40,600 nt of DNA. Source: Candidatus Nomurabacteria bacterium RIFCSPLOWO2_01_FULL_41_12 (GTDB taxonomy: Bacteria; Patescibacteriota; Minisyncoccia; Phycocordibacterales; UBA9973). Location of the stretch: assembly GCA_001787035.1 (NCBI GenBank), contig MFUY01000002.1:7355-47954 (forward strand), read 5' to 3'. Positions 282-39,866 of the stretch are shown here, in pieces (positions within the stretch are counted from its first letter, which is position 1; the number at the start of each line of letters is the position of its first letter). Both the position numbers and the translations under genes were made by a program. The notes beneath the pieces were generated by a model. The model made no database searches, was not told the origin of the DNA, and worked only from the letters and a program-made list of their open reading frames with translations.

Positions 282-674
282 TTAATTTTTGTGAATATCT
301 TCTTCTAAATGGGCTAGTTGCTTTTCCACTCTATTCAAAGTATCTTGGAGGTTTTTAATTTGAGTTTCTTCTGTTGCAACTTCTTCTTCCACTTTTTCAG
401 CCATTTTTTCTTCGCCAATCAAGCCGGAAATAATAAGCCGGCTCCCAATAAAAGCGGAGACAAATACTCCCGTGATAAGAAGTATTATGGTTCCTATAAT
501 TATTGAGGCCACAGAACTGACATTAATATCATCGGCCAAATGCCATATTCCGCGCCAAAATAATATTATTCCAATGCCCCCTATGAGCGCGTAAAGAATA
601 GGGTAGTGGCTTAGTTTACTCCTTACTCTGTCTTCCAACTTATCAAAAAATCGCTTTATCTTTTTCAACTTCAT
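282..674 (-). CDS. hypothetical small membrane protein with acidic coiled-coil-like C-terminus
   Basis: 130-aa ORF with two hydrophobic segments (PILYALIGGIGIILFW, IIIGTIILLITGVFVSAFIG) and an EEKMAEKVEEEV tail. TAA stop. No family recognised. Confidence 0.55.
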   Translation of the reverse strand: MKLKKIKRFFDKLEDRVRSKLSHYPILYALIGGIGIILFWRGIWHLADDINVSSVASIIIGTIILLITGVFVSAFIGSRLIISGLIGEEKMAEKVEEEVATEETQIKNLQDTLNRVEKQLAHLEEDIHKN

Positions 675-753
675 CCCAGTACTAAAATTTTAAATAATAA
701 TGTTTATCCTTATTTCCCGTAATCAAAATTAGGTGAAACCGTTACGGGACAAG
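675..753 (-). repeat. Family A leader element, copy A1 (abuts the ATG of the 282..674 gene)
   Basis: The reverse complement reads ACTTGTCCCGTAACGG...AAAATTTTAGTACTGGG followed by ATG. It shares the 5' box ACTTGTCCCGT and the 3' box AAAATTTTAGTACTGGGATG with copies at 4630, 27776 and 36197. Confidence 0.7.
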
Positions 754-790
754 TATTGCTTTATCATACACTAAGAGTAGAATTGTTTCC

Positions 791-4629: not shown

Positions 4630-4702
4630 ACTTGTCCCGTACTAAATTTTTGATTACGAGGCATAACGATAAACATTAATAATTAAAATTTTAGTACTGG
4701 GA
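4630..4702 (+). repeat. Family A leader element, copy A2 (ends in the nusG ATG)
   Basis: ACTTGTCCCGTACTAAATTTTTGATTACG...AAAATTTTAGTACTGGGA. TCCC 4635-4638 pairs with GGGA 4699-4702, which includes the A of the ATG. Confidence 0.7.
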
Positions 4703-5244
4703 TGAAACAAGAAACAGAGGGGGCAAGAAATTGGTACGCAATACACACTTATGCCGGATATGAAAATGTCGTCTTGCGTAATTTGCGCCAGCGCATTGAC
4801 TCCCTAGGTATGAACGATAAAATTTTCAACGTTATTGTTCCGATTGAAAAAAAGATAAAAATAAAAGGAGGCAAGAGAGTGGAGGTGGAAGAAAAAATTT
4901 ATCCGGGTTATGTTTTGGTTGATATGATTGTGACGGATGATTCTTGGTATGTGGTGAGGAATACTCCGCGGGTCACCGGTTTCGTCGGCGCGGGAGTAAA
5001 CCCGGTGCCTCTTAAAAAAGAAGAAGTGGAGTATCTTTTCAAGAAGATGGATGCCGGCACAACTAAGCACAATATTGACATGGTTATCGGCGAGAGCATT
5101 CTGATTACCGATGGTCCGTTTAAAGAACTGGAAGGGAAAATTAATTCCATTGACCAAGAGCGTGGCAAAGTTAAAGTGCTTGTTTCAATGTTCGGTCGCG
5201 AGACCCCGGTCGAACTAGATTTCTTGCAAGTCAAGAAAATTTAA
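4702..5244 (+). CDS. nusG: transcription termination/antitermination factor NusG
   Basis: 180 aa. WYAIHTYAGYENVV, YPGYVLVDM and a KOW-type C-terminus ITDGPFKELEGKI. Confidence 0.9.
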   Translation: MKQETEGARNWYAIHTYAGYENVVLRNLRQRIDSLGMNDKIFNVIVPIEKKIKIKGGKRVEVEEKIYPGYVLVDMIVTDDSWYVVRNTPRVTGFVGAGVNPVPLKKEEVEYLFKKMDAGTTKHNIDMVIGESILITDGPFKELEGKINSIDQERGKVKVLVSMFGRETPVELDFLQVKKI

Positions 5245-6462: not shown

Positions 6463-6985
6463 GCCGCATAAAGTTATTTACACCGCTTATGTTGCAACTA
6501 GTATTGATGGACGCATAGCAGAGAGTCATCAGTCCGGCATAGACTGGACAAGCAAGGAAGACTGGAATTTTTTTCAGAAATCTCTTAATAAAATGGATGC
6601 CGTCATTGTGGGGCATAATACTTATAAAGTTTCCAAAGATCGCCTCAAACGGAGAAACACCATAGTTTTGACTTCAAAAATCAATAAGTTGAAAACACAA
6701 GACAAAATTGTTTTTTTTAATCCAAAGAACTCCAGCCTAGAAAAATTTCTTAGTAGTAAAGGATATAAAAATATAGCAGTGCTCGGTGGCGGTAAAGTGT
6801 ATGATTTTTGCCTTTCCAATAAAATGCTGGATGAGCTTTTTGTCACGATTGAACCGTATGTTTTCACAAATGGCGTGCCGATGTTCTCCGGGATTAGATT
6901 CAGAAAATATAAATTTTCCTTAGTTACAGTTAAAAGACTTAATAAAACAGGAACCCTTCTCTTAAAATATAAAAATGAAAATTAA
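6446..6985 (+). CDS. RibD C-terminal domain / dihydrofolate-reductase-like reductase family protein
   Basis: 179 aa. VATSIDGRIA, DAVIVGHNTY, VLGGGKVY, DELFVTIEPYVFTNG. Confidence 0.7.
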   Translation: MNRKSKPHKVIYTAYVATSIDGRIAESHQSGIDWTSKEDWNFFQKSLNKMDAVIVGHNTYKVSKDRLKRRNTIVLTSKINKLKTQDKIVFFNPKNSSLEKFLSSKGYKNIAVLGGGKVYDFCLSNKMLDELFVTIEPYVFTNGVPMFSGIRFRKYKFSLVTVKRLNKTGTLLLKYKNEN

Positions 6986-13470: not shown

Positions 13471-13504
13471 CCTGTCCCGTATCAAGCTTACTTTGGTTCG
13501 GGGT

Positions 13505-13533
13505 TTGCAATTTCCTCTATGTTATAGTATATT
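13505..13533 (+). promoter_or_regulatory. sigma70-like promoter upstream of rpsL
   Basis: TTGCAA (13505-13510), 17-nt spacer, TATATT (13528-13533). Confidence 0.5.
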
Positions 13534-13540
13534 TTCACCT

Positions 13541-13564
13541 GAGTCTTCGGACTCTTTTGTTTTC
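13541..13564 (+). promoter_or_regulatory. 5'-leader hairpin plus U-tract in the rpsL leader
   Basis: GAGTC-TTCG-GACTC (13541-13554) followed by TTTTGTTTTC. The same promoter/hairpin/T-run layout occurs upstream of tuf and rpsS. Confidence 0.45.
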
Positions 13565-13578
13565 AATAGTCAAATTTG

Positions 13579-27352: not shown

Positions 27353-27547
27353 ATGAAAACAAAGAAAGACAATTTAAAAGGAATGAAAAAGGATGAGCTC
27401 AAGAAAAAGCTTGTTGTCCTGGAAGAGAATGTGCGAGTTATTAGATTTAAGGCGGAAGGTTCAAAATCAAAGAATGTAAAAGAGTCGGCAACTTTAAGAA
27501 AAGAAATTGCTCGAATATTAACAGAGATAAATAACAAAAAGAAATGA
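27353..27547 (+). CDS. rpmC: 50S ribosomal protein L29
   Basis: 64 aa. [20 protein letters not shown]. The TGA stop overlaps the rpsQ ATG. Confidence 0.9.
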
Positions 27548-27771
27548 ATAAAGGTAATATCTTAAAAGGAGTGGTTGTTTCGGACAAGATGGATAAGACC
27601 GTGATTGTAACAGTGTCGCGATTTATCAAGCATCCGCTTTACGGCAAATTTTATAAAGTAAATAAGAAATACAAAGCGCATGACCAGGAAAATAAATATA
27701 AAATCGGAGATAAGGTAGAAATAGTTGAAACCAGGCCGATTTCAAAAGACAAAAGATTTAAAGTGGTATAA
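27544..27771 (+). CDS. rpsQ: 30S ribosomal protein S17
   Basis: 75 aa. [45 protein letters not shown]. Confidence 0.95.
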
Positions 27772-27775
27772 TTAT

Positions 27776-27847
27776 ACTTGTCCCGTTGCAAATTCAACGA
27801 ATGGGACATAAAGGATAAAAATTATTAATTAAAATTTGCAACTGGGA
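27776..27847 (+). repeat. Family A leader element, copy A3 (ends in the rplN ATG; classical S10|spc boundary)
   Basis: ACTTGTCCCGTTGCAAATT...AATTTGCAACTGGGA. GTTGCAAATT 27785-27794 pairs perfectly with AATTTGCAAC 27833-27842, and TCCC pairs with GGGA 27844-27847. It carries three compensatory pair changes relative to A2 and A4. Confidence 0.75.
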
Positions 27848-28218
27848 TGATACAAAACGAAAGTTTAGTTAAAATAACAGATAACGCTGGAGGCACCGTG
27901 GGTAAAGTGTTCAAGATTTTAGGCTCTTCAAAAAAAAGATACGCGACTTTGGGCGAATTGGTTATTATTTCTGTGAAAGTAGCTTCTCCACGAAAAGGGG
28001 TAAAGAAGAAAGACGTGCATCAGGCAGTCGTCGTACGCACCAGAAGCGCCTACAGAAGGAAGGATGGATCTTATATTCGTTTTGACGATAATGCTGTAGT
28101 GCTCTTGGAAAAAGGCAAGCTTGACCCGAAAGCCGGGCGCGTCTTCGGTCCGATACCGAGAGAGCTTGCTGAAAAGGGATTTCAAAAAATAATTTCGCTG
28201 GCGCAGGAAGTAATTTAA
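27847..28218 (+). CDS. rplN: 50S ribosomal protein L14
   Basis: 123 aa. MIQNESLVKITDNAGG. Confidence 0.95.
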   Translation: MIQNESLVKITDNAGGTVGKVFKILGSSKKRYATLGELVIISVKVASPRKGVKKKDVHQAVVVRTRSAYRRKDGSYIRFDDNAVVLLEKGKLDPKAGRVFGPIPRELAEKGFQKIISLAQEVI

Positions 28219-31294: not shown

Positions 31295-31885
31295 ATGGAA
31301 AAGACAAAAGAAAAAAAGAATAATAATCGCAGAGGATCCTCTTTCGGACGAGCAAAGCCGGAGTTTGACCAGAAGATTTTAAATATTCGCCGCGTGACCA
31401 GGGTTGTCGCTGGCGGACGCCGGTTTTCCTTTAGCGTCGCTTTGGTGGCCGGGGATAAAAAGGGGTCTGTTGGTTTAGGCTTGGGAAAAGCGGGAGATAC
31501 GGCACTCGCGATAAATAAAGCAGTACGCAATGCCAAGAAAAATATGATAAGGTTAAAGTTGACAAAGACAATGTCTATTCCCCACGAGCTTTCTGCTAAG
31601 TTTTCAAGCTCACGAATTATTCTTTTGCCGAACAAGGGTCGCGGGCTGGTAGCTGGCTCGGTTATTCGCGATATAATAAAACTCTCCGGGATGAAGGATA
31701 TTACTGGGAAAATCGTGTCTAATAGCAAGAATAAATTAAACAATGCCAAAGCAGTCATGGAGGCTCTCTCTGTTATTTCTTCAAAATATGCAAAACCAGT
31801 AGTGGAAAACATTACCATAGTCCCGGTAGAAGTTCCTATCCCCGCAACATTTATTAAAGATGTAAAAGAGGAACCCCAGCAGTAG
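31295..31885 (+). CDS. rpsE: 30S ribosomal protein S5
   Basis: 196 aa. INRVTKVV-like RRVTRVVAGGRRFSFSVALVAGD, GLGLGKAGD. Confidence 0.95.
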   Translation: MEKTKEKKNNNRRGSSFGRAKPEFDQKILNIRRVTRVVAGGRRFSFSVALVAGDKKGSVGLGLGKAGDTALAINKAVRNAKKNMIRLKLTKTMSIPHELSAKFSSSRIILLPNKGRGLVAGSVIRDIIKLSGMKDITGKIVSNSKNKLNNAKAVMEALSVISSKYAKPVVENITIVPVEVPIPATFIKDVKEEPQQ

Positions 31886-31943
31886 AGCGAAGCTCACTAC
31901 GGGGCAAGAAAAAATAAATAAATAAAATTTCTGTAAAAAATAT

Positions 31944-36196: not shown

Positions 36197-36270
36197 ACTT
36201 GTCCCGTACTAAATTTTTGATTAAGATAAATGACCACTCTTAGTAACAATTTAAAATTTTAGTACTGGGA
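36197..36270 (+). repeat. Family A leader element, copy A4 (ends in the map ATG)
   Basis: ACTTGTCCCGTACTAAATTTTTGATTAAG...AAAATTTTAGTACTGGGA. Both boxes are identical to copy A2. Confidence 0.7.
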
Positions 36271-37052
36271 TGATAATTATTAAAACACCAGAAGAAATAG
36301 AAATACTGCGAAAAGGGGGCAGGCATCTGGCGGCTGTGCTTCATAAAGTAAAAGAGAAAATAAAACCAGGAATTTCCACGAAAGATTTGGATGATTATGC
36401 ATTTAAGTTAATTAATGAAATGGGCGACTCTCCCGCATTTTTGAATTATCGTCCAGCCGGCGCGAAAGTTCCTTTTCCTGCAAGTCTTTGTGTGTCTGTC
36501 AATGATGAAGTAGTGCACGGCATTCCAAACAAGGAAAGAATATTAAAAGAGGGTGACATTGTCGCGCTTGATTTAGGACTTAAGCATAAAGGGCTTTTTA
36601 CCGACATGGCATTTACGGTACCAGTAGGGAAAGTGAGTTCTAGCGCTCTTAAATTAATGGAGGTGACAGAGAAGGCACTGCAAGTGGGCATCAATGCGGC
36701 GCAAGCCGGCAATACGGTAGGGGACATCGGCCATGCCGTTGAGAGTTTTGTGCGTGCCCAAAAAAACAGCCAGCAGTACGGTATTGTAGAAGTTCTCTCG
36801 GGGCACGGAGTCGGACGCGCAATACATGAAGACCCCTATATACCCAACTTTGGGAAAAAAGGGAAAGGAGAAAAGTTAGTTCCGGGCATGGTCATTGCGC
36901 TCGAGCCGATGATAAATAACGGCACAAAAAATGTGACTTTGGACGATGACGGCTACACTTTCCGCACAGCTGACAGCAAAAACAGCGCGCATTTTGAGCA
37001 TACAATTTTGATTACCGAAAATGGGCCGGAAATTTTGACCAAAACTTTTTAA
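36270..37052 (+). CDS. map: type I methionine aminopeptidase
   Basis: 260 aa. VVHGIP, DIVALDLG, FTDMAFT, GHGVGRAIHE, ALEPM, FEHTILIT. Confidence 0.95.
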   Translation: MIIIKTPEEIEILRKGGRHLAAVLHKVKEKIKPGISTKDLDDYAFKLINEMGDSPAFLNYRPAGAKVPFPASLCVSVNDEVVHGIPNKERILKEGDIVALDLGLKHKGLFTDMAFTVPVGKVSSSALKLMEVTEKALQVGINAAQAGNTVGDIGHAVESFVRAQKNSQQYGIVEVLSGHGVGRAIHEDPYIPNFGKKGKGEKLVPGMVIALEPMINNGTKNVTLDDDGYTFRTADSKNSAHFEHTILITENGPEILTKTF

Positions 37053-37094
37053 AAAAATTTTAGCTTTTGTTTGTTTTGTTATATACTTATATCC

Positions 37095-39866
37095 ATGGAA
37101 CAGCCATTTTTTAAGGAAATGCCGAAGTTTAAGACTCCAGAAGAGGAGCTTGATTATTTGCGTGCTCATGTGGCTCGTCGCGAAGAGGAGCTTATTAAGA
37201 TTGGGCATATTGAACATGCGGGAGACAATGCGGCGCGGGACGTGGTGGGAGCATATAAGGAAGTGCCCGCGGAGGAGATATTGCACGAAAGTCATCTTTT
37301 AAATAAAAAGGAAACGGAAGGCATAGTTTTGGCGCTTAAGCCGGAATCCCACGATAATACAATGGAAGAACTTTTAGGTATTGTCATAACCAAAGGAGTT
37401 AAAAATGCGCTCTCGGTGGTAGAGGCTATGAATAACCCGCATATTGAAGATGATTTCCATAGGATTTTAATTCAGTACTTAAAAGCAGGCCAAGCGAACA
37501 TCCCCTTCAAAGAAGGTACTCCCATGCACAAGTCTCTCAATATGACGCTCTTTGAGATAACTCTTCCACCGCCCACCGATGAGGCTGATAAATCAAAGGG
37601 TTTCAAGGAATTTATCGGAGCGATGGAGCAGTTTTATGCCGGCATGCAATCCATTTCTTCGGATAAAAAAAATACAAAAGAAATTTATTTCACATTAGAA
37701 GTGGCTCTTGGTAATCAAAATGATGAGGTGGTTGTCTATGCGGGAGTTCCCAATAAGCATATTTCTCTTTTTGAGAAACAGATTTTGGCATTTTATCATA
37801 ATGCGAAAATCCGCGAGGTGACGGATGATTATAATATTTTTAATATGGACGGAGGGTCCACCGGAGCTTATGCGGTGCTCTCCGAGCGCGGAGTAATGCC
37901 AATCAAGACTTATGACAATATCGAGCATGATCCAATGAATACGATTCTCAATGTATTTTCCAAACTGCAGACTAAGGGTGAGGGCGCAGCGATCCAGCTC
38001 GTGGTAGCGCCCGCCGGCGAAAAATTTATCAATGAATTTCACATGATCTTGGATGATGTGAAAGACGGTATGTCTGTCAAACATGCGGCGGATAATTTTT
38101 ATAAATTTAACCGCGCATTTTTAGACGCAGGCAAGGAATTAATTTTTGGCAAAAAGAAAAAGGAGCCGGAGGGAAAAAATCCTGAAAAATACATGAAAGG
38201 CAGACGCGCGGTGGATGAAGGAGCAGCGGAAAAAATAGGCAATAAAATAAAAAGTAGTATTATGAAAGCCAATATCCGTGTTATTACATCAGGCGCGACG
38301 AAAGAGCGCGCAGAGGCTATTCTAAAAGAAATAGAATCTTCTTTCAACCAATTTTCCGAAGCGGCCAGCAACTCTTTTGTCTTTGAAGAAGCTCACGGAA
38401 GCTCTCTGAAGCAGCTTTTTCATGATTTTTCTTATCGTGCTTTTTCAACTGACAGGATTATACCGCTTAATTTAAAGGAGCTTGCTTCAGTCTTTCACTT
38501 TCCGGTCGGCATCGGCAGTCAGCCACAGTTGAAGGAGGCTAAAGCCGGTATTGCTCCAGCACCACTTGAGATGGGGCAAGAGGGGATAATCTTAGGAGTA
38601 AATAGTTACCGGGGCAAAGATACTGAAATCCACATGGCGCGTGAAGACCGCATGAGGCATTTCTATGTGATAGGTCAGACGGGAACAGGCAAAACAAATA
38701 TCATGCTCAATATGATTACGCAGGATATAATCTCCGGCGACGGTTGTTGTTATATAGACCCTCACGGCACTGATATACAGACCATCTTATCCCGTATTCC
38801 AAAAGAACGTATTGATGACGTTATTTATTTTGATCCAGCCTACACATCTCGCCCAATGGGGTTAAACATGCTTGAGTATGACACTAAATATCCGGAGCAG
38901 AAAACTTTCGTGGTAAACGAGATGATGGGAATTTTTAATAAACTTTTTGATATGAAAGTGGGAGGCGGGGCGATGTTTGAACAATACTTCAGGAATAGCG
39001 CATTTCTGGTGATGGAAGATCCGGAGTCCGGCTCCACCTTGCTTGAGATTACCAGGGTCTTGGGCGACAAAGAATTTCGAGACATGAAACTTGCCAAGTG
39101 TAAGAACCCTATCATTAAACAATTTTGGGTTTCTGCCGAGCAGACGACGGGGGATCAGTCTCTAGCGAACTTCGTGCCATATATTTCTTCTAAATTTGAT
39201 AATTTTATCAGCAACGACATTATGCGTCCGGTAGTGCTCCAGCAGAATTCTGTCTTTAACTTCCGAAAGATTATGGACGAGAAGAAAATTCTCTTGGTCA
39301 ATCTTTCCAAGGGCCGGCTGGGAGATATCAACGCGAACTTAATCGGTCTCGTCTTGGTGGGTAAAATCCAAATGGCGGCGCTTTCCCGAGTGGATATGTT
39401 TGGCAAGCCGATGAATGATTTTTATCTTTACATTGATGAGTTTCAAAATGTCACTACCGACTCCATCGCTTCTATTTTATCAGAGGCTAGAAAATACAGA
39501 TTATCGCTCAACATCGCGCATCAATACATCACTCAATTGGAGGAGAATATTAAAAATGCTGTCTTTGGAAATGTCGGATCAATGGCGGTCTTTCGCGTCG
39601 GCACTGAAGACGCGACATTTCTTGAACCAAAATTTAAAGAAAAATTTACAGCGCATGATATTACAAAACTAGATAATTACAATGCCTATGTGAGCATGCT
39701 TGTAAAAGGCCAGCCAACTAAACCTTTTAATCTGCATACTTTGGCTCCGGAGAAAGGCAATCCTGACATTGTGGATAGTCTAAAAGAACTTTCTTATGTC
39801 AAATACGGCCGCGACCGAGAAGAAGTGGAAGCTGAAATCATGGCGAGGTATACGTCTATGGAATAA
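37095..39866 (+). CDS. large soluble P-loop NTPase of the TraD/VirD4/VirB4-HerA (T4SS-type) superfamily with an unassigned ~500-aa N-terminal region
   Basis: 923 aa from the ATG at 37095. Walker A GQTGTGKT (38673-38696). Walker B-like FYLYIDEFQN (about 39420-39449). YIDPHG, ARKYRLSLNIAHQY. No TM segment seen. Confidence 0.6.
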   Translation: MEQPFFKEMPKFKTPEEELDYLRAHVARREEELIKIGHIEHAGDNAARDVVGAYKEVPAEEILHESHLLNKKETEGIVLALKPESHDNTMEELLGIVITKGVKNALSVVEAMNNPHIEDDFHRILIQYLKAGQANIPFKEGTPMHKSLNMTLFEITLPPPTDEADKSKGFKEFIGAMEQFYAGMQSISSDKKNTKEIYFTLEVALGNQNDEVVVYAGVPNKHISLFEKQILAFYHNAKIREVTDDYNIFNMDGGSTGAYAVLSERGVMPIKTYDNIEHDPMNTILNVFSKLQTKGEGAAIQLVVAPAGEKFINEFHMILDDVKDGMSVKHAADNFYKFNRAFLDAGKELIFGKKKKEPEGKNPEKYMKGRRAVDEGAAEKIGNKIKSSIMKANIRVITSGATKERAEAILKEIESSFNQFSEAASNSFVFEEAHGSSLKQLFHDFSYRAFSTDRIIPLNLKELASVFHFPVGIGSQPQLKEAKAGIAPAPLEMGQEGIILGVNSYRGKDTEIHMAREDRMRHFYVIGQTGTGKTNIMLNMITQDIISGDGCCYIDPHGTDIQTILSRIPKERIDDVIYFDPAYTSRPMGLNMLEYDTKYPEQKTFVVNEMMGIFNKLFDMKVGGGAMFEQYFRNSAFLVMEDPESGSTLLEITRVLGDKEFRDMKLAKCKNPIIKQFWVSAEQTTGDQSLANFVPYISSKFDNFISNDIMRPVVLQQNSVFNFRKIMDEKKILLVNLSKGRLGDINANLIGLVLVGKIQMAALSRVDMFGKPMNDFYLYIDEFQNVTTDSIASILSEARKYRLSLNIAHQYITQLEENIKNAVFGNVGSMAVFRVGTEDATFLEPKFKEKFTAHDITKLDNYNAYVSMLVKGQPTKPFNLHTLAPEKGNPDIVDSLKELSYVKYGRDREEVEAEIMARYTSME

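Follow-up and report, generated by a model that had tools for sequence, protein, structure and literature searches.

A palindromic repeat adjoining start codons in a Candidatus Nomurabacteria genome is probably a miniature mobile element that carries a hairpin leader

We analysed a window of 40,600 nucleotides (nt) from Candidatus Nomurabacteria bacterium RIFCSPLOWO2_01_FULL_41_12 (contig 2, positions 7355-47954; the full assembly is 666 kb in 31 contigs), in which a palindromic repeat of ~72 nt, here called Family A, abuts the start codons of several genes. Family A is a mobile or recently mobile repeat whose two ends pair into a long stem with its foot at the AUG of the adjoining gene. It is probably a miniature palindromic mobile element, similar in kind to REPIN and Correia elements and found in Candidatus Nomurabacteria and a few neighbouring genera, which would be transcribed together with its gene as a hairpin leader.

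An earlier note on this DNA had described four copies adjoining start codons. All four are present, in front of nusG, rplN, map and an open reading frame (ORF) for a membrane protein of 130 amino acids (aa). Each starts ACTTGTCCCGT, finishes ACTGGG and is followed by the ATG of its ORF. The translated N-termini resemble the normal starts of NusG, uL14 and methionine aminopeptidase, and we therefore take the ATGs of the window copies to be true start codons. The copies, and the features surrounding the rplN copy, are as follows.

27776..27849, plus strand: Family A copy at rplN; element 27776-27846, ATG 27847-27849
27779-27794, 27795-27832 and 27833-27849, plus strand: 5' arm, loop and 3' arm of the rplN copy, with U27843 bulged
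27544..27771, plus strand: rpsQ ORF, its stop codon 4 nt ahead of the element
27764..27772, plus strand: TGgTATAAT, an extended -10-like box that overlaps the rpsQ stop (position weight matrix score 9.5)
27847..28218, plus strand: rplN ORF, its ATG forming the stem foot
4630..4704, plus strand: Family A copy between secE (stop 4614) and nusG (ATG 4702)
36197..36272, plus strand: Family A copy between adk (stop 36194) and map (ATG 36270)
672..754, minus strand: Family A copy at the 130-aa membrane ORF (ATG 674..672)

Covariance-model scores for these copies lie between 67 and 97 bits (E 1e-11 to 1e-18). The nusG copy scores 96.6 bits (minimum free energy (MFE) -20.4, z -5.0) and has a class-1 loop with a proximal partner for its 5' box, a feature we return to below. 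The map copy, separated from the upstream stop by a 2-nt gap, scores 86.3 bits (z -4.2) and has a class-2 loop of the TGACC type with no proximal partner. The rplN copy scores 71.7 bits, with an arm duplex of -19.9 kcal/mol and an MFE of -17.4 (z -3.5). The extended -10-like box next to it predicts a start 3 nt inside the element, is absent from relatives and may be fortuitous. The minus-strand copy scores 66.8 bits and folds no better than its shuffles (z -0.4); its 5' arm is split by a 10-nt insertion that leaves the long stem weak and favours a proximal hairpin.

Covariation supports the stem throughout the family. For the genome scan we built a covariance model from 20 aligned copies of this genome, and the alignment for the genus holds 92 copies from 15 genomes. 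Among the 20 copies, 94% of cells are paired in the proposed helix against 36-56% when the partner is slid, and six pairs vary on both sides, a number matched in 0 of 500 shuffles. The first and last ~27 nt of all 92 copies form a duplex of 13-22 bp (-9 to -23 kcal/mol). At least 12 arm variants occur (GTACTAA, GTTAGAA, GTTAAAA, GTATTAA, GTAGTAA, GTTGTAA, GTTGCAA, GTACGAA and others), each with a matching 3' arm. Cognate arms pair with a mean of -14.2 kcal/mol against -7.9 kcal/mol for arms taken from different variants, and a mean as low as the observed one arises in 0 of 1000 permutations. The GC clamp covaries as well, with TCCT facing AGGA in another genus. The three compensatory pair changes reported for the rplN copy are exactly as described, GTTGCAAA / TTTGCAAC replacing the GTACTAAA / TTTAGTAC of the other copies. 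Folded singly, copies reach z values of -2.4 to -5.5, the minus-strand window copy being the exception.

The AUG lies within the stem in every aligned copy, and the foot of the stem is the AUG itself, paired as U.G, G.U and U-A before the CCC/GGG clamp. The helix had been said to cover both the AUG and the place of a Shine-Dalgarno (SD) sequence; the pairing of the AUG stands, and the second point is moot in a genome without SD signal. Leaving aside the invariant G5.U at the AUG, we count ~107 G.U cells on the sense strand of the 92 copies and 4 A.C mismatches, these counts being of cells and not of independent events. Because the non-Watson-Crick positions are almost all G.U on that strand, the hairpin is under selection on the mRNA-sense strand, as RNA or as single-stranded DNA.

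Family A is a repeat family of the genus and its surroundings. This genome contains 21 strong copies and at least 3 diverged ones, the latter with perfect 15-bp stems and the 5' end ATGRATCCCGT. The element is present in 13 of the 24 sampled species of the genus, with 1-17 copies each, and was not detected in the other 11. A scan of 150 genomes of the order gave matches in 6 genomes of 5 other genera, and those copies likewise end at the ATG of open frames. Preference for start codons and covariation, the two properties by which the earlier note would have the family judged, both hold across the genome and across the genus in the covariance scan. Rfam searches of the window returned tRNA only, with no match to Family A at gathering score, and 17 further copies had no match even at E<=1. 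Neither main subfamily matched a viral contig collection, and we rejected carriage by phages on that basis.

The position of the element is fixed to the base. The sequence ends in ATG in 86 of the 92 copies, in ATT in three and in GTG in three, and 84 of the 92 adjoin an ORF of at least 50 codons or one open to the end of the retrieved DNA. Such positions make up 0.43% of the genome (P ~9e-189). Orientation is always that of the downstream gene.

Comparison with relatives shows how the element came to be there. The rplN copy had been read as a conserved leader at the S10-spc boundary; set against congeners it is an insertion, since all 29 other species examined have a short rpsQ-rplN junction that lacks the element. 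The closest relative at this locus (RplN 95% identical) reads TAA-TTTT-ATG where this genome reads TAA-TTAT-[71 nt]-ATG. At fba, the closest relative has TGtTAAAAT-aaatag-ATG and this genome has the same promoter, then the element, then the ATG; in a third species, a copy of the ATG-type class has inserted independently at the identical point. Between secE and nusG, most of 80 related metagenome-assembled genomes (MAGs) read TAA-N5-20-ATG and few have the element. At all three sites (rplN, fba, nusG) the break between filled and empty forms falls exactly between position -1 and the ATG, and none of these three comparisons shows a target-site duplication. The junctions are N-ACTTG... and ...GGG-ATG, with neither the TA target nor the duplication of the Correia type; ATG stands at both ends in the third class only. 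Since close relatives have empty sites, we conclude that each copy is a precise insertion and not a conserved leader.

Gene identity appears to matter little. Orthologous genes have different subfamilies in different species (an exonuclease, rpsP, nusG and a response regulator), and one copy, before an ftsA-like gene, is common to seven species. The five cases of one gene with different subfamilies are close to chance expectation by a rough estimate that assumes random gene starts, and a preference for particular genes was rejected because same-gene coincidences stay at about chance level. If the target is as short as ATG, purifying selection in a genome that is ~90% coding could suffice to produce the start-codon pattern, and the few copies ending in ATT or without an ORF (C28, L143, L055) agree with this. 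The rpsQ-rplN junction seems to collect hairpin insertions: other species (L077, L079, L081, L102) have unrelated small GC hairpins there, such as TCCCGCC-agag-GGCGGA.

Several variant forms accompany the typical copies. A third class, ATGRATCCCGT...CGGGATG, itself begins with ATG and has perfect 15-bp stems; outside this genome it occurs at the fba locus of G023 (L155) and in G005 (L071). At the former, the resident -10 box lies N6 from the first ATG of the element, and a leaderless upstream ORF (uORF; MNPVR...) would enter the hairpin. In the C1 copy the uORF stop overlaps the main ATG (ATGA). Two further hairpins consist of Family A arms alone around a loop of 3-4 nt, the one in C9 adjoining a TATAAT-N6-ATG promoter. 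One decayed copy lies upstream of a response-regulator gene, with its 5' box CTGTCCCGTTAGAGG intact and its 3' arm not recognisable, 47 nt ahead of the ATG. Positions in this genome (G000) are:

C20:3896-3969, minus strand: third-class copy
C20:35324-35399, plus strand: third-class copy
C1:7178-7265, plus strand: third-class copy
C9:8461-8504, plus strand: arm-only hairpin
C30:49909-49946, minus strand: arm-only hairpin
C24:30830-30953, minus strand: decayed copy

The significance of an insertion at this point depends on how the host starts translation. An SD core precedes only 7% of the long ORFs of this genome, and purine enrichment is absent. TAnnnT stands exactly at -12..-7 in 108 of 656 ORFs, over a background of ~20 per offset, and the consensus TTG(-35..-33)...T-G-n-T-A-t-A-A-T(-15..-7)-N6-ATG is an extended -10 that places the transcription start at the A of the ATG. 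The same signature occurs inside the window, for example upstream of the ORF starting at 6975. Leaderless mRNAs thus appear, from these predicted promoters, to be the default mode in this genome. The 16S rRNA, sought for an anti-SD reading, is not in the assembly. The pattern agrees with what has been reported for a subgroup of Parcubacteria, the frequent lack of an anti-SD motif (PMC9297842); we found no description of leaderless usage in Patescibacteria in the literature searched.

A weight matrix derived from those 108 leaderless promoters was used to scan the copies. In 18 of them it puts the predicted start exactly at nucleotide 1 of the element and in 32 no more than 6 nt away, other offsets being matched once or twice at most. 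Nearly all copies of the GTT type have a resident promoter with its start in the region of nucleotide 1; here the N6 spacer lies on one side of the element and the ATG on the other, and the element should be transcribed whole, as a leader. A co-directional ORF ends within 90 nt upstream of 60 copies, and in 31 of these 60 its stop lies -1 to +4 nt from the element, giving an arrangement of stop, hairpin and AUG.

Some copies may in addition bring a promoter of their own. In about one fifth, chiefly of GTAC class 1, the loop contains a strong extended -10 (20 of 92 score at least 8), and the start predicted from it lies ~28 nt before the ATG. The ftsA copy keeps TGaTATAAT, an instance of TGnTATAAT, in all seven species while neighbouring bases vary, and for that reason we take its loop promoter as probably real. 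In most copies the 3' arm also holds a weaker box, TAAAAT, without the TG extension; transcription from it would begin 3-6 nt ahead of the ATG. One could therefore see Family A as a portable promoter that sets a -10 near the ATG, from the loop or from the 3' arm, and whose inverted ends serve transposition through a single-stranded DNA hairpin while the RNA stem has no role. The ftsA conservation, the strong loop boxes, the weak recurrent match with its predicted start at -6 and the operon-internal GTAC-type copies that have no upstream promoter all favour this account, as does the precedent of Correia elements, which create promoters at their ends (PMC2649163). We nevertheless consider it unlikely, since a good promoter is missing both upstream and in the loop of 42 of the 92 copies, those of class 2 and those with long loops have none, and the GTT type lies nearly always downstream of a resident promoter whose transcripts would span the entire element. 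Moreover, a 28-nt leader without SD is not obviously translatable in an organism of the leaderless type, and the 3'-arm box departs from the genome-typical form with TG. The earlier suggestion of a mobile promoter-leader cassette remains the best-fitting of the roles proposed: filled and empty sites bear out its mobility, and the loops of some copies have a conserved extended -10.

Other readings of these stretches were tried and rejected. A conserved uORF from the TTG of the 5' box has neither conserved frame nor conserved stop, and stops after 3 codons in the GTT type; a real uORF with a 5'-terminal ATG exists in the third class only. Taken as a -35, the 5' box TTGTCC would call for a -10 hexamer 17 nt downstream, and that hexamer is not conserved; the stretch of the 3' arm where a canonical leaderless -10 would stand (-12..-7) covaries with the 5' arm. 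Nor is the element an intrinsic terminator: it has no U-tract, and the stem leads straight into the AUG and coding sequence.

A G-rich stretch 8-14 nt further downstream offers the 5' box a second partner (CCCGTA/TACGGG, GTCCC/GGGAC and others). A competing proximal partner had been claimed, and it is real in about two thirds of copies. By loop class the proximal pairing compares with shuffled loops as follows.

GTAC class 1, 33 copies: ~-9.5 against -4.5 kcal/mol for shuffled loops, z ~-2.4, 58-64% individually significant
GTT type, 33 copies: in a range like that of GTAC class 1
TGACC type, 10 copies: no better than shuffled loops
Long-loop, 15 copies: no better than shuffled loops

The proximal partner lies directly 5' of the -10-like box, and the order of a small hairpin followed by a -10 is found at some ordinary promoters of the genome as well (C9, C16, C5). 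Two folds of this kind could make a cis-regulatory RNA that toggles between a proximal hairpin with the AUG free and the long stem with the AUG masked, co-regulating growth genes through a factor, temperature or ribosome traffic. The strength of the proximal pairing in the GTAC class-1 and GTT loops would suit such a switch, as would the AUG held in the stem of all copies, the arms kept in the orthologous ftsA copies of seven species and a gene set rich in ribosomal, division and translation genes. It is hard to reconcile with the absence of the element from the same genes in the closest relatives and from 11 of 24 congeners altogether, with unrelated loop classes and 25 copies that have no alternative partner, with the lack of any matching Rfam family, or with same-gene recurrence across species that a rough estimate places at about chance level. 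We judge a switch improbable. The related proposal of a translational operator of the regulon type fell on similar grounds: the genes are heterogeneous, 13 of 24 species have the element, and the subfamily at a given gene differs between species.

The 5' box recurs in a second, shorter hairpin. At 13472, where the earlier note had placed a partial Family A 5' box, lies a member of this separate family, Family B, and not a truncated Family A. Its form is YTG-CCCCGTA..AGC-loop-GCT..TTCGGGG-T, with ~18 copies genome-wide, and Families A and B have the 5' motif YTG-YCCCGTA in common. Some Family B copies lie directly upstream of a -10 box. The U-tracts of the family are poor; its members may be terminators or REP-like repeats. 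The window holds two:

13472..13503, plus strand: Family B hairpin upstream of rpsL, YTG-CCCCGTA...CGGGG
31874..31904, minus strand: Family B hairpin, CCCCGTAGTGAGC...GCTCTACTGCTGGGG

A strongly conserved 5' box common to two hairpin families, together with a promoter-like loop between inverted repeats, could point to a site that acts as DNA: an operator for a dimeric regulator, an invertible promoter switch, or a terminator or insulator. We give this very little weight. Protein half-sites would not be expected to show variable-arm covariation or a G.U bias, a 36-nt segment is too short for inversion, no U-tract follows the stem before the AUG, and the orientation always matches the downstream gene.

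Two neighbourhoods in the window deserve mention. Upstream of rpsL, positions 13504-13575 hold a TGtTATAGT box and then a leader of ~60 nt with a GAGTCTTCGGACTC hairpin, which suggests that rpsL is among the genes here that do have a leader. Directly after map, a 931-aa ORF (37071-39866, plus strand) stands where bacteria usually have infA-rpmJ-rpsM.

Returning to the mobile element with a hairpin leader, its action can be envisaged in a few steps. The element would integrate in a single orientation between position -1 and the A of the start codon, which is either a leaderless transcription start or a point just after the stop of the preceding cistron. It would then be transcribed with the gene, through the resident promoter or by read-through, as a ~72-nt leader or an intercistronic spacer. 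Such an insertion should abolish initiation, because it leaves the AUG 70 nt from the RNA 5' end or the upstream stop in an organism without SD, unless the two are brought close once more. The hairpin would loop the insertion out and keep the AUG near that 5' end or stop. RNase III might cleave the stem at its foot, leaving an mRNA that is (near-)leaderless and an upstream RNA capped by the stem; the element's own promoter might drive expression; or a ribosome terminating 1-4 nt before the stem might open its lower part and free the AUG. Among these rescue steps we tentatively prefer RNase III trimming. The genome has an RNase III gene (rnc; contig 12, 3069-3464), the enzyme is reportedly retained in the candidate phyla radiation (CPR; PMC12641178), and the RNase III-type processing site suggested earlier is a plausible, if predicted, part of the element. 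More speculatively, and with considerable doubt, the insertion may be self-neutralising, aimed at the first base of the start codon by an HUH-type single-strand enzyme or the open complex of a leaderless promoter, with the hairpin then cut or spanned so that a 5'-terminal AUG is regenerated.

Several points weigh against this picture. No transposase is linked to Family A. This genome, which was searched for both, yielded neither an autonomous parent nor a pair of arms around a longer segment, and there is no target-site duplication, unlike in classical, DDE-transposase-derived miniature inverted-repeat transposable elements (MITEs). Selection on a single-stranded DNA hairpin during transposition would lead one to expect the G.U bias equally, and the conserved arms of orthologous copies could reflect gene conversion among copies and not local function. 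Below the AUG the stem continues for only ~3 weak pairs, fewer than canonical RNase III geometry would lead one to expect, and co-transcription, cleavage and the effect on translation are predictions. The transposase genes that are present also offer no match. None of the four RAYT-like genes of this genome (214-242 aa) is flanked by Family A, each having other inverted repeats:

C9: RAYT-like gene
C10:844-1506: RAYT-like gene
C20:9889-10578: RAYT-like gene
C25:1514-2242: RAYT-like gene

IS200/RAYT-like Y1 transposase genes (HUH, with an NHFH motif) occur in 28 of 31 genomes of the genus at 1-11 each, which is many for genomes of 0.5-0.9 Mb, and also in congeners that lack Family A. Family A copies lie near RAYT genes weakly above expectation by a rough estimate. 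A link between the two was rejected, as the flanking repeats differ. An enzyme recognising single-strand hairpins would fit the G.T strand tolerance, the absent duplication and the fixed orientation; we treat this as a lead and not a finding.

If the proposed sequence of events is true, leaderless mRNAs made by processing and mobile DNA targeted to start codons would be regular features of CPR bacteria without SD. The genes carrying such an insertion include the essential rplN, rpsL, nusG, map, ftsA and mreB. How an AUG held in a 15-22 bp stem, 70 nt away from the RNA 5' end, can be translated bears on how CPR bacteria initiate translation, and the family raises the question of how mobile DNA locates a start codon. 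In practice, the element can be used to recognise true start codons and transcription units in Nomurabacteria MAGs, and leaderless initiation, RNase III processing and translational coupling could all be studied on it as a compact natural example. In the literature searched we found no report of a repeat family that adjoins the start codon base for base in ~90% of its copies.

Known systems resemble Family A in part. Ribosome shunting and hairpin-bridged reinitiation, as in the 35S leader of cauliflower mosaic virus or the bypass in T4 gene 60, place a stop a few nt before a stable stem and restart after it, the geometry seen in 31 of the 60 operon-internal copies; those mechanisms are eukaryotic or phage-specific, and the likeness is one of geometry alone. 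RNase III sites in phage T7 early mRNA, the lambda N leader and the E. coli adhE leader share with Family A a long stem that holds or occludes a translation start, and cleavage there frees the start and separates cistrons. Those sites are single, vertically inherited and belong to SD-led genes, whereas Family A is mobile and its product would be (near-)leaderless. An integron attC site was rejected on sequence, as the order of the core-like motifs does not agree with it and the genes concerned have housekeeping functions. The terminal inverted repeats of a MITE are there, as arms of 13-22 bp in the 92 copies, and so is insertion polymorphism.

Correia elements (CREE/NEMIS) of Neisseria are like Family A in size, inverted ends, polymorphism, location 5' of genes and supply of promoters. 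Their short forms of 69-73 bp have terminal inverted repeats, are polymorphic between strains and often lie 5' of genes; co-transcribed copies form mRNA hairpins that RNase III binds or cuts, and one gonococcal copy supplies the A of an ATG (PMC2649163). They differ in inserting at TA (or CA) with duplication and at varying distance from genes, where Family A shows no duplication and adjoins the start codon in ~90% of copies. Family A has no evident integration host factor (IHF) site, and its host is an SD-less CPR bacterium of the leaderless type. RNase III cleavage, documented for CREE, is a prediction for Family A.

REPINs combine inverted conserved ends with a less conserved spacer, form a long hairpin as single-stranded DNA or mRNA, measure ~70-110 nt, commonly show compensatory changes and have a less stable alternative fold (PMC3116915). 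Family A likewise has inverted conserved ends around a spacer that form a hairpin with compensatory changes, and its genome contains RAYT-like genes of the IS200-like Y1 type. On the defining features of the two systems it departs from both, lacking a duplicated TA as well as a cognate RAYT gene between repeats of its kind. Its arms do not appear to be REP palindromes in their own right: a small hairpin (CCCGTA..TACGGG) is made by the left end only, in about two thirds of copies, and GTAC, GTAG or GTTAG, compared with the REP tag (GTAG or CGTC), lies inside the GC clamp and not outside. None of the RAYT genes has Family A arms at its flanks. REPINs are extragenic and typically lie 3' of genes, whereas Family A is fixed at start codons.
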